Virus record (IMG/VR): IMGVR_UViG_3300032931_000905
Coordinates: 25,021 to 89,020 of that record
Reading direction: 5' to 3' (one strand)
Source: a virus
Length of the DNA: 64,000 nt
Part shown: positions 24,610 to 45,015 of the stretch, in pieces
Numbering within the stretch: position 1 is the first letter of the stretch
How the letters are laid out: each line of letters starts with the position of its first letter
Translations under genes and position numbers: made by a program
The notes under the pieces: model-generated
Seen by the model: the letters and a program-made list of their open reading frames with translations, nothing else
Told to the model about the DNA's origin: nothing
Database searches by the model: none

Positions 24610-25049
24610 GGCATATCAGGATAGGCTTGCTTGACCAGGGTGGCCGTCAAATGAGGTACCGCGAGTGTTTTGTTGATGACCCCGGCCAACAAGGAGGCTT
24701 CGTCCTTATGGAGACAGGCCAATAAGGTATGGAGATTCTGCTCCGCTTTGCGAGGGGACATGGTCCCTTTTCGGGCAGGATGATCCTTGACAAAGATATA
24801 TAATTTTTTCACTTCTTGTTCCAGATAGGCCAGATTCAATCCCGCCGGATCGACGGAGGGCTTATACTTCGGTACCGTGACCTCAAACACCGTGGAGGGA
24901 TTGAAGGCATAATTCAAAAATTCCTTGAGTCCAGGGCTCGTATATTCACGGAGTATCCGCACTCGTTCCGCATCGTTGGGGGCGAGTGTGAGCTTATCGA
25001 AAATTTCTGAGAATAAGAAAATCATGGTATCCCTTCTAAAATTCATCAA
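24591..25049 (-). CDS. conserved T4-like hypothetical protein
   Basis: E.KKLYIF...K.E......L..LH.DEA.LL motif; follows RNase H. Confidence 0.65.
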   Translation of the reverse strand: MMNFRRDTMIFLFSEIFDKLTLAPNDAERVRILREYTSPGLKEFLNYAFNPSTVFEVTVPKYKPSVDPAGLNLAYLEQEVKKLYIFVKDHPARKGTMSPRKAEQNLHTLLACLHKDEASLLAGVINKTLAVPHLTATLVKQAYPDMPWEVKA

Positions 25050-36555: not shown

Positions 36556-36860
36556 TGGTGGAGATGCCGGGAATTGAACCCGGGTCCAAAAGCAACGTCA
36601 AAGTCAGATTTTCATGCTAGTCAATCTTACAACGCCCGCCAAAGGGATTGACACCTTCTACGGTCTTCTTGAGCGCACAACTTGCCTCCAAGAATGACGC
36701 TTCACCACCTACAGGAGCCTATCAGTGGGTCAACGGGCCGCGATTAAGCGGCCATTGCCAGTTCGTGTTCGACAATTCGGTTTTTCCAAGTATTAACGAG
36801 GTCCTGGTCCTCGGCATGTCCGTTCTTCTCTATACGCCTCTGTCGATACCTGTCATCCCC
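36556..36860 (-). ncRNA. ssrA: tmRNA
   Basis: 5' GGGGATGACAGGTATCGAC, 3' GGACCCGGGTTCAATTCCCGGCATCTCCACCA with G3-U; internal tag frame ...VEHELAMAA*. Confidence 0.92.
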
Positions 36861-40174: not shown

Positions 40175-40258
40175 TGGTGGAGGTAGTAGGAATCGAACCT
40201 ACTGGGTATTAGCAAGGCTTTTACAGAGCCCCCTCGCGCCGTACGAGACTATACCTCC
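40175..40258 (-). tRNA. tRNA-Tyr(GTA)
   Basis: GGGCT-CTGTAAA-AGCCT, extended variable region, CCA. Confidence 0.85.
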
Positions 40259-40264
40259 GTTCAC

Positions 40265-40429
40265 TGGTCGGCAGGCGCCTTTCCGTCTTGCATCAGAAGA
40301 ACAATGCCGCTCGGCGAAACGCCGCGGAACTGATCTTTCCTAAGCCGTCATGGTGGCTATCCTGCCTCAATCGAAAACTTTGGGCACGTAAGCACTTCGT
40401 AGTGGTACGCATCAAGCAACCCGCCGACC
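40265..40429 (-). ncRNA. unassigned ~165-nt structured RNA with acceptor-like stem and ACCA end
   Basis: 5' GGTCGGCGGG pairs with 3' CCTGCCGACC(A); internal hairpins. Confidence 0.5.
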
Positions 40430-40460
40430 TCTATCTTTGGGGCGCTTGACTGCCCCGCCG

Positions 40461-40535
40461 TGGTGCCCCCACTGGGTATCGATCCCAGTTTTTCTGCTTG
40501 AAAGGCAGATGAACTAGCCAGTATTCGATGGGGGC
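40461..40535 (-). tRNA. tRNA-Glu(TTC)
   Basis: TCTGC-CTTTCAA-GCAGA, CCA. Confidence 0.87.
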
Positions 40536-40549
40536 GTAGTTCAAAAATG

Positions 40550-40833
40550 TAGGGTAACTTAATCAGCCTTTAGGCCTTGCTGAAGGAAACGCGCATTTCC
40601 CGTCTGGACTTACTTTGGTGGCCAGACTCTCGTTACCACTTGCTCGTCAAAAATTTGGGGTGCCTTGGTCCTCAGTTATTCCCCGGCAGGGAGGACTCCG
40701 CGAATTGCCAGGCCAGATGTTCCCAGATTCAGCACCCCTTGGGAACCCACGAAATATGCCGGGGGAAGATTTCACGTTCGTACCAACTTCTTCGGATTTT
40801 GAATAACGCACCATATCTATGCACGTTACCCCA
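40550..40833 (-). ncRNA. unassigned ~280-nt structured, probably pseudoknotted RNA
   Basis: Terminal GGGTAAC/GTTACCC; internal CCCCGGCA/TGCCGGGG, GTTCCCA/TGGGAAC, GGGGTGC/GCACCCC, GTCCTC/GAGGAC, GTCTGG/CCAGAC. Confidence 0.6.
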
Positions 40834-40926
40834 GTCCGTTGGTGTTCCGACCCGACTCTCTGCCTCTGATCTTCTGAGAGGACTTAAAATGACCGGCGCT
40901 TCTGATCGTGGTACCGGGCTTCCACT

Positions 40927-41184
40927 TTAGACCATACTTAACTGGACACTAAAACCACACCATGTTCCTGCAAGCCCAACAGCCGGATCTTTTTCTCGGA
41001 TTCGTTCCAGTTCAGTGATGGCGGCTCTCACGGCATCATTGACCTTCGTAAAATCTCCTACCCCGTTCACTATCGCGGCCCTAGACGTAAAAAACGAAAT
41101 CCCATTGATTATGACCCTGAACCGCTGAAACGTCTCAAACTCTTTCACAGCTTGTTTCCTCTGTTGTGTTTTCTCAATCATCAT
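40927..41184 (-). CDS. hypothetical early protein
   Basis: ATG just downstream of a TTGACT-N17-TATACT promoter (41190-41218). Confidence 0.6.
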   Translation of the reverse strand: MMIEKTQQRKQAVKEFETFQRFRVIINGISFFTSRAAIVNGVGDFTKVNDAVRAAITELERIREKDPAVGLAGTWCGFSVQLSMV

Positions 41185-41272
41185 ATTAAGAGTATAACAG
41201 AGCCCCTACACAGAGTCAAGCATTATTTGCCACATTAGAGAAATATAATGTACTGCAAAATCAACAACTTAG

Positions 41273-41361
41273 TGGTACACCGGTTGGGAATCGGACCCAA
41301 TCGAGGTGGTAATCTGCCACAAAGAGGTTATAAATCTCTCTTGCCTCCAAGGCGCCGGTGC
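41273..41361 (-). tRNA. tRNA with TAT anticodon (Ile) and long variable arm
   Basis: AGAGA-TTTATAA-CCTCT; V arm GTGG-CAGATTA-CCAC; very short D loop; CCA. Confidence 0.75.
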
Positions 41362-41448
41362 AAAACTTTTATGAGCGGAAGACTGGTAACTACGTCTTCC
41401 CTTTCCCCTCTGCGCTGTCTCACCAATTACAGAGGACTCAAAAACTTA

Positions 41449-41522
41449 TGGTGGGACGCAAGGGACTTGCACCCTCATCTTTCGGCTTAAAAGGCCGATA
41501 TTCTGCGTTGAACTAACGTCCC
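41449..41522 (-). tRNA. tRNA-Lys(TTT)
   Basis: TCGGC-CTTTTAA-GCCGA, CCA. Confidence 0.87.
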
Positions 41523-44713: not shown

Positions 44714-44787
44714 TGGCATACCTACGAGGAATTGCACCCCGATCATTCGTTTTGGAGACGAATATGTTGCTGTTACACCACAGGTAT
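44714..44787 (-). tRNA. tRNA-Trp(CCA)
   Basis: TTCGT-CTCCAAA-ACGAA, GCCA. Confidence 0.86.
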
Positions 44788-45015
44788 ATGTCTCTTGTGG
44801 TATGGACCGCGTTTCTTTCCGATCATTCGTTCAGACTTCTTGCAATTCCTCAAGAATGAATGGGCCAATGCTGCCAACCACCACAAGTCAATCGTTCATA
44901 ATCCGATACGGCTTGTTACCGTCGAAGCAGCACCTTATGATTGCCCTTCCGCATGTCAGTAGTTGCACTTCCCTTCATGCGTCTAGGACCCTGTCTTGGC
45001 CAGAACAGGAGGTAT

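Follow-up and report, generated by a model that had tools for sequence, protein, structure and literature searches.

The stretch of DNA analysed here (the window) comprises 64,000 nucleotides (nt) of viral sequence, positions 25,021 to 89,020 of the IMG/VR record IMGVR_UViG_3300032931_000905. It carries 25 transfer RNA (tRNA) genes and a transfer-messenger RNA (tmRNA) gene between 35651 and 44787, all called on the minus strand by ARAGORN, with concordant Rfam matches. Positions 40550-40833, inside this array, had been interpreted in a preliminary description as one unassigned structured RNA of ~280 nt. Comparison with homologues reduces the real feature within these positions to a minus-strand RNA of 97 nt (40751-40655) that folds as a double pseudoknot (hereafter the knot). 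The tRNAs around 40550-40833 all lie on the minus strand, so any RNA made together with them would be a minus-strand RNA. The core and its neighbours are as follows.

40927-41184, minus strand: 85-codon open reading frame (ORF) upstream of the 40550-40833 stretch, with no PHROG or Pfam family
40655-40751, minus strand: core RNA, putative hammerhead-less, one-piece member of a phage double-pseudoknot family, 5' end at 40751 and 3' end at ~40655
40461-40535, minus strand: tRNA-Glu(UUC) called by ARAGORN, the next gene downstream of the core, which follows the core after ~16 nt in the relatives L150 and L151

The paired strands of the core succeed one another in the order a b a' c d c' d' b'. The fold, supported by covariation, is a nested double pseudoknot made of hairpin a, helix b between the loop of this hairpin and the 3' end, an inner pseudoknot of helices c and d, and a tertiary helix of 2 base pairs. 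Its elements, in 5' to 3' order of the RNA, are listed below, with mutual information abbreviated as MI.

40740-40746, minus strand: helix a, 5' strand, RNA GUUCCCA, pairs with 40719-40725
40732-40738, minus strand: helix b, 5' strand, in the loop of hairpin a, RNA GGGGUGC, pairs with 40657-40663
40719-40725, minus strand: helix a, 3' strand, RNA UGGGAAC, covariation in both alignments
40713-40714, minus strand: GG before helix c, 2-base-pair tertiary helix with CC 40689-40690, from MI
40706-40712, minus strand: helix c, 5' strand, RNA CCUGGCA, pairs with 40682-40688
40691-40696, minus strand: helix d, 5' strand, inside helix c, RNA GUCCUC, pairs with 40668-40673
40689-40690, minus strand: CC between helix d and c', partner of GG 40713-40714, from MI
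40682-40688, minus strand: helix c, 3' strand, RNA UGCCGGG, covariation
40674-40681, minus strand: joint GAAUAACU between c' and d', invariant, on the strand fixed by the search pattern, so that the invariance is partly forced
40668-40673, minus strand: helix d, 3' strand, RNA GAGGAC, covariation
40657-40663, minus strand: helix b, 3' strand, RNA GCACCCC, 3' boundary of the conserved RNA, covariation

The window copy forms all 27 pairs of this scheme, one of them as U-G. About 35 unpaired bases in the joints of the core are invariant or nearly so, one such strand being fixed by the search pattern, and the conserved joints are all present in the window: CGUGGG at the 5' end, CAUCUGG, CGYGGAGU, GGGGAAUAACUG, and ACC after helix d'. 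The window departs from the conserved family sequence only in having U instead of C in helix c and CCAAG where the family has CCUAG. Conservation starts at C-G-U-G-G-G in nearly all members, in several of them 0-1 nt past a tRNA. The joint GAAUAACU may cross the groove of helix c.

Pairing was evaluated in 10 hammerhead-less homologues, aligned by MAFFT alone, and in 54 homologues bearing a hammerhead ribozyme; neither alignment was fitted to the structure. Paired cells made up 87.7% of the smaller alignment and 72.3% after shuffling, none of 500 shuffles reached the observed value, slid controls gave 36-49%, and changes on both sides were found in 19 of the 27 pairs. The larger alignment was 96.1% paired against 68.6% when shuffled (again 0 of 500 shuffles, with slid controls at 47% or less), and 355 cells were doubly changed, compared with 99.5 in shuffles. 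For the individual helices in the 54 sequences, helix a was 97.8% paired with both-side changes in 5 of 6 pairs, helix c 99.4% paired and helix d 100% paired, the latter two each having three variable pairs, all compensatory. Both-side changes affected all seven pairs of helix b, and these pairs also lead the MI ranking. An unguided MI scan of 76 unique sequences, from which the variable insert had been removed by script, placed its 16 best pairs inside helices a-d. The first tertiary pair (60:80, the G before c with the C after d) is G-C in 68, U-A in 7 and otherwise in 1 of the 76 sequences, and G-C in 50, U-A in 3 and otherwise in 1 of the 54-sequence alignment A3; the second pair is weaker, 59% paired.

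The 16 motifs named in the preliminary description were all found on the plus strand at the claimed places, starting at the following positions.

GGGTAAC 40552 and GTTACCC 40825, plus strand: proposed closing helix
CCCCGGCA 40681 and TGCCGGGG 40757, plus strand: proposed enclosing helix
GTTCCCA 40719 and TGGGAAC 40740, plus strand: proposed hairpin
GGGGTGC 40657 and GCACCCC 40732, plus strand: proposed loop pairing
GTCCTC 40668 and GAGGAC 40691, plus strand: proposed pairing across the enclosing helix
GTCTGG 40602 and CCAGAC 40622, plus strand: proposed 3' hairpin
GGAAA 40585 and TTTCC 40596, plus strand: proposed 3' hairpin
TCAGC 40563 and GCTGA 40579, plus strand: proposed 3' hairpin

The proposed hairpin GTTCCCA/TGGGAAC corresponds to helix a, the loop pairing GGGGTGC/GCACCCC to helix b and GTCCTC/GAGGAC to helix d, and each of the three covaries in homologues. 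The check by covariation that had been suggested was borne out for helices a, b and d; comparison with relatives gave no support to CCCCGGCA/TGCCGGGG and the closing helix GGGTAAC/GTTACCC. For the former, a complement upstream of the core is present in 1 of 93 members, namely the window alone, and the covarying partner of TGCCGGGG is TGCCAGG (40706-40712), in helix c. By folding energy only, the upstream CCCCGGCA strand of the window more plausibly closes a separate module predicted in the 5' flank.

Sensitive blastn of the stretch around 40550-40833 against 50,697 phage records gave matches in its middle only, at 40662-40751, with 82-89% identity in 6 records. These belong to the Arthrobacter phages Constance and Karkharias, Microcystis phage Mwe-JY26 and Mycobacterium phage Gaia, four unrelated named phages whose matches span 40662-40751. 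A 15-base motif occurred in at least 119 stretches among viral contigs; a longer version, searched in 185,579 species represented by a single genome each, gave 25 stretches. The record titles for the longer motif name Bacilli, Clostridia, Alpha- and Gammaproteobacteria, Burkholderiaceae, Mycobacterium, Bacteroidetes, Thermomicrobiales, Gemmatimonadales, Phycisphaerales, Patescibacteria and one archaeal metagenome-assembled genome, with isolates of Acinetobacter, Pseudomonas and Marinibaculum. The members occur in phage contigs, in prophages, including the late leaders of lambdoid prophages of E. coli, and in a T7-like phage.

The census comprised 149 pattern hits, 132 of them unique, among which 107 members could be classified (78 standard, 13 permuted and 16 hammerhead-less); 5 were unclear and 20, having no neighbouring motif, were taken as chance hits. 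In standard members the joint between helices c and d is long and contains a type I hammerhead, with stem I, CUGAnGA, stem II, GAAA and stem III, that ends in U-H directly before the conserved CGYGGAGU; stem I covaries in homologues. The 16 hammerhead-less members, to which the window belongs, have a short c-d joint of 25-41 nt. A regular-expression search found the full hammerhead consensus in 69 of the 78 standard and 12 of the 13 permuted members (81/91 in total) and in none of the 16 hammerhead-less ones. Among the nine standard members that do not show it, some have altered cores (phage Gaia), and at least three have a stem III beyond the length allowed by the pattern. Two hammerhead-form members scored 28.7 and 24.7 bits with the Rfam model Hammerhead_1, below the cut-off of 34. 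The family is uncatalogued in Rfam 15, widespread and apparently undescribed, and the window copy is of its less common, hammerhead-less form.

Permuted genes have the order hammerhead, 3' half, connecting hairpin, 5' half, often with a long closing stem, and after cleavage their product would begin with the knot. In two such loci (L096 and L143) a hairpin and a U-run were seen by eye on both sides. A 271-nt query matched 511 of 5426 complete E. coli genomes over some portion of its length, and 80% or more of it is contained in 14. In the prophage of E. coli EC6622 (1447697-1447967) the permuted cassette is located in the late-operon leader, between the Q antiterminator and holin genes, and in a T7-like Enterobacter phage it directly follows a hairpin and U-run, just before the gene for tail tubular protein A. 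Since a 94.7% identical cassette is present in a lambdoid E. coli prophage and in the T7-like Enterobacter phage, the element moves as a unit between unrelated phages, and the knot is probably a stand-alone or mobile cassette.

At the corresponding place, phage lambda has the closing stem only: a long stem with a 37-nt loop, just past tR' (L155, lambda 44787-44862). In some E. coli prophages (L153 2773-2835 and 3019-3227) the same stem is occupied by the 170-nt cassette of hammerhead and knot, while other sequence fills a second copy of the stem. The lambda-type stem after tR' has the appearance of a docking site at which RNA cassettes can be exchanged. About 100 nt upstream of the EC6622 cassette (L153 2885-2939) lies a short frame reading ANDDVVLMAA-stop, to which the Rfam permuted-tmRNA model assigns 26.3 bits, below its cut-off of 47; ARAGORN calls no tmRNA at the locus. 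This frame could stem from a captured piece of tmRNA that codes for the tag, or could belong to another RNA module.

Within 3 kb of the unique members, 231 tRNAs were found on the same strand and none on the opposite one. Arrays of at least four tRNAs accompany 7 of 16 hammerhead-less members, compared with 5 of 91 hammerhead forms (Fisher p = 2.3e-4). The element is 0-2 nt from tRNAs, on one or both sides, at several loci (L089, L113, L117, L058 and L102); the match in Mwe-JY26, a hammerhead-less member, is inside a tRNA array and that in Gaia directly after an annotated tRNA-Ser, on the tRNA strand in both. By eye, the knot of Mwe-JY26 (L003 1280-1915) is flanked by three similar class-II tRNA-like units that are unannotated in the record. 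An all-versus-all comparison of 1489 neighbouring ORFs revealed no recurrent protein neighbour, no family being present at more than 5 of 76 loci. A scan of the window locus for promoters and terminators returned a single promoter-like site, at 41219-41191 on the minus strand, and a single terminator-like one, as many of each as chance predicts.

Known RNAs were considered as explanations of the stretch. None of the 4227 Rfam 15 models matches it, even at E ≤ 10, which answers the Rfam check that had been proposed; no match to the knot was obtained at gathering score over the whole window, at E ≤ 10 over 40200-41500 or at E ≤ 1 over 14 homologous loci. The absence of RNase P and tmRNA signatures noted in the preliminary description agrees with ARAGORN and Rfam, which gave no tRNA, tmRNA or RNase P RNA in 40536-41448 besides the flanking tRNAs. 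GOLLD, ROOL, Drum and other tRNA-associated motifs were rejected, none matching among all Rfam 15 models at E ≤ 10. A type I hammerhead (RF00163) was ruled out for the window copy: its CUGAnGA/GAAA/UH core was not detected by regular expression, and Rfam at E ≤ 10 was without a match in 40200-41500. HDV-like (hepatitis delta virus-like) and theta ribozymes have another helix order (P1 P2 P3 P3' P1' P4 P4' P2' with P1.1), and no HDV-type Rfam model matched at E ≤ 10. RNase P RNA, the group I intron core (with P3/P7-like c/d), HDV-like RNAs and twister, as well as pistol, hatchet, glmS and riboswitch pseudoknots, gave no model match and have other helix orders in a by-eye comparison of topologies. 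The non-circularly permuted hammerhead, as presented in the available part of PMC10085705, does not account for the hammerhead-less form, as the conserved joints do not join three common stems. A coding role was dismissed, in agreement with the earlier statement that the stretch has no credible ORF: the ORFs at 40577-40930 (plus) and 40647-40814 (minus) have no Pfam family, and relatives differ by indels of 11, 3, 2, 2 and 106 nt, which include frame-breaking ones. The literature yielded no description of the knot, although supplementary motif lists of comparative-genomics papers could hold one. What remains of the claim of an undescribed large structured RNA is an uncatalogued double-pseudoknot RNA on the tRNA strand, not an RNA of ~280 nt.

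The RNA in the window is probably a stand-alone knotted RNA that is released as a discrete, compact molecule and whose working part is the knot. The minus-strand core would be co-transcribed with the tRNAs and then released, and we infer, as had been suggested, that it is processed out of the tRNA transcript. The folded knot would be the functional unit, either binding a broadly conserved partner or ligand or being catalytic. The number of invariant unpaired bases, and a distribution that covers phages of hosts from many phyla, speak for catalysis or for the binding of a universally conserved partner or ligand, and the knot is likely to have a role of its own because the conserved joints are all kept without the hammerhead and in permuted order. 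The hammerhead would then serve maturation of the knot. In permuted genes, in which it stands at the very 5' end, it would cut the knot free of the upstream transcript, and in the standard form its cut would produce an RNA of two pieces, nicked but kept joined by helices b and c. For copies in tRNA arrays, cuts by RNase P and RNase Z at the flanking tRNAs may make the hammerhead dispensable, which would explain the enrichment of hammerhead-less members in such arrays.

Several points weigh against this reading. Expression, RNA ends and release of the window knot are deduced from sequence, and sequence analysis indicates no partner, ligand or reaction. The window core is distant from its neighbours, 175 nt from the upstream ORF and 119 nt from tRNA-Glu, and with the latter gap RNase P alone would leave a long 3' tail. 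The hammerhead cut of the standard form is internal and nicks the RNA, so that the maturation role fits the permuted forms better. The folding energy over 40536-40850 is no better than that of shuffles (z = 0.56 on the minus and 1.99 on the plus strand); weak values are expected for a pseudoknotted RNA, hence energy lends no support. The covariance model R1 gives the core 97.5 bits, its sole match in the window, with the window being part of the R1 seed. The members were gathered through one 15-base motif taken from four phage sequences, by which divergent members are missed and the invariance of the motif-bearing strand is forced.

It is conceivable, if doubtful, that the knot defines a new functional RNA class, namely a novel ribozyme, or else a naturally occurring aptamer by which the hammerhead is gated and which acts alone where the hammerhead is absent. 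Such an RNA could, for example, bind a universal small molecule or host factor, carried as a mobile, protein-free cassette among unrelated phages. If this were true, the copies in E. coli lambdoid prophages would be the first genetically tractable bacterial or phage hammerhead with a definable partner domain.

A role as cis-acting punctuation is considered unlikely; here the knot would act on no transcript but its own and, once the hammerhead or RNase P has cut, would cap the 5' side (5'-OH) of a downstream RNA or the 3' side of an upstream RNA and shield it from decay. In its favour, the permuted cassettes lie directly after a terminator-like hairpin and before late genes (E. coli Q-holin; tail tubular protein A in the T7-like phage), and crude ORF calling places a co-oriented start within 60 nt downstream of 24 of 72 standard forms, compared with a stop within 60 nt upstream of 10 of 70. 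The short distance of ~16 nt between the core and tRNA-Glu in L150 and L151 would also suit it. However, copies with tRNAs at 0-2 nt on both sides, or with terminator-like hairpins on both sides (L096 and L143), leave nothing to protect, and the ~35 invariant unpaired bases exceed what a mere roadblock needs.

We regard it as improbable that the knot represents a novel self-cleaving ribozyme class whose cut, at or close to its own 5' end, trims the 3' trailer of the upstream tRNA in a theta-like manner. The nested double pseudoknot with its 2-base-pair helix and many invariant joint bases would be fitting for a ribozyme, conservation sets in at C-G-U-G-G-G, 0-1 nt after a tRNA in several members, and the family is physically linked to another self-cleaving ribozyme, the hammerhead; theta ribozymes, as described in the part of PMC10879173 available, provide a precedent. 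Yet the helix order is unlike that of HDV-like ribozymes, the spacing to the upstream tRNA varies from 1 to more than 100 nt, and most members have no nearby tRNA. In permuted genes, moreover, the supposed 5' end is internal, and a ribozyme inside a ribozyme would be redundant.

An aptamer that senses a ligand and gates the hammerhead through the short stem I, hammerhead-less copies serving as sensor or sponge, seems very unlikely. The hammerhead stem I is ~4 base pairs long and runs directly into helix d and, via a linker, helix c. Engineered aptazymes have the same layout. The level of conservation is riboswitch-like, and the presence in phages whose hosts belong to many phyla suggests that the ligand is universal. 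Against this, the members have no consistent downstream gene and no expression platform, and no ligand is indicated. We know of no precedent for an aptamer standing alone in a tRNA array.

The single ~280-nt RNA of the preliminary description, extending over 40550-40833 and closed by GGGTAAC/GTTACCC, can be set aside with near certainty, although all of its named motifs exist. The stretch consists instead of three modules: the widespread core, with a module on its 5' side and an insert on its 3' side, both of them lineage-specific, unrelated and swappable. The parts outside the core are the following.

40752-40890, minus strand: 5' flank, a separate predicted structured module with the CCCCGGCA of the preliminary description and one arm of the closing helix, present in close relatives only
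40549-40654, minus strand: 106-nt lineage-specific insert with the three 3' hairpins and GUUACCC, absent in L150 and L151
40647-40654, minus strand: direct repeat AUUUUUGA bounding the insert, copy 1, 8 nt
40541-40548, minus strand: direct repeat AUUUUUGA bounding the insert, copy 2; the relatives have the repeat once

L150 and L151 are metagenome contigs of close relatives that align to the window on both sides of the missing 106 nt. One arm of the closing helix lies in this insert and has no counterpart in them; the other lies in a 5'-flank hairpin at whose site L151 has a different hairpin. The three 3' hairpins (GTCTGG/CCAGAC, GGAAA/TTTCC and TCAGC/GCTGA) are present as described, but all of them fall within the insert that L150 and L151 lack. 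Further points against the single RNA are the occurrence of an upstream partner for TGCCGGGG in 1 of 93 members and the folding z of 0.56 and 1.99. The conserved RNA is therefore 97 nt (40751-40655), with a 5' flank shared by close relatives only and a 3' flank that is a lineage-specific insert.

The 5' flank is kept in L151 (82.8% identity over 244 nt) and in record 5 of the short-read contigs X1 (40658-40887). Its predicted fold has one hairpin with two compensatory pairs, the remainder being based on energy only (z = -0.68). Folding energies of the flanks are no better than chance (z = -0.30, -0.68 and -1.08), the last value belonging to the insert, whose predicted fold is cloverleaf-like with a four-way junction. 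No tRNA model matches the insert at E ≤ 10, and it has no second copy in the genome and no match in the 50,697 phage records. The X1 contig diverges exactly past 40658, beyond the last pair of helix b, and differs from the window at both 40738 and 40657, which changes G-C to A-U in helix b. In L124, a more distant related phage (65% protein identity in the neighbouring ORF), the element is absent and unrelated sequence occupies the syntenic place. A further contig, X3, joins 40641 to 40757 and skips the core; with 24 letters on one side only, it was not relied on.

That the window copy is a decaying, functionless remnant of a hammerhead cassette is hardly credible: the hammerhead is missing and some relatives, such as phage Gaia, have degenerate hammerhead cores, but the family-wide conserved joints and all helices are intact in the window, differences from the nearest relatives keep pairing (in helix c U-G becomes C-G, and in helix b G-C becomes A-U), and there are 16 independent-looking hammerhead-less members.

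Further observations were made in the same tRNA array, all on the minus strand. An ORF at 41680-42330 matches homing endonuclease families (phrog_314, E = 2.7e-42) and could be a driver of cassette shuffling in the array. A second gene-free gap of 200 nt separates tRNA-Tyr from tRNA-Glu at 40259-40460, and the window is 92% identical to L150 over 40377-40555. At ~41262-41365 the sequence resembles, by eye, a tRNA with a long variable arm and the anticodon UAU, called there by neither ARAGORN nor Rfam; ARAGORN does report a tRNA-Ile(tat) of 93 nt in the relative L124. The tmRNA of the window (36556-36860) is a one-piece form with an Rfam score of 120.9 bits, for which ARAGORN gives an unusually long tag of 29 residues.

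Very few small RNA folds are conserved over phages of many bacterial phyla. The role of bacterial and phage hammerheads is an open question, and the family ties the hammerhead to a highly conserved partner domain that survives without the ribozyme. Standard, circularly permuted and nicked gene forms are typical of RNAs whose three-dimensional shape is the function. Members within experimental reach are found in E. coli lambda-like prophages, Microcystis phage Mwe-JY26, Mycobacterium phage Gaia, Arthrobacter phage Constance and Enterobacter phage SDFMU_EhYP. For annotation, the family accounts for one of the recurrent gene-free gaps in phage tRNA arrays, and it shows that a gap of this kind can be made up of several independent RNA modules, each swappable, instead of one large RNA.

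Among known systems, the tRNA region of phage T4 produces small stable RNAs (species 1 and 2; RNAC/RNAD) that are not tRNAs, are co-transcribed with the phage tRNAs and are cut by tRNA-processing enzymes. The knot resembles them in its setting, with no sequence or fold relationship known. GOLLD and ROOL are also often located near phage tRNAs. As far as the available portion of the source describes them (bioRxiv 10.1101/2024.12.08.627333), they are likewise conserved, complex phage RNAs without an assigned function, and they are 5-8 times larger than the knot. Two-piece and permuted tmRNAs, in the part of PMC10085705 available, offer a likeness in that one fold arises from standard and permuted genes and nicked forms assemble from two pieces; tmRNA is a different RNA from the knot, and the window has its own tmRNA elsewhere (36556-36860). 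The type I hammerheads of phages and prophages (RF00163; Perreault et al. 2011, PMC3088659, as far as its available part goes) share the phage and prophage settings of the family, but their core is absent in the window copy, and the knot lies outside any hammerhead model and persists without the ribozyme. The HDV-like theta ribozymes, according to the available part of PMC10879173, are also small nested double pseudoknots on the phage tRNA strand, and formation of RNA ends has been proposed for both; they differ from the knot in helix order, and the host range of the knot is far wider than that of the gut phages in which that part of the source places theta ribozymes.

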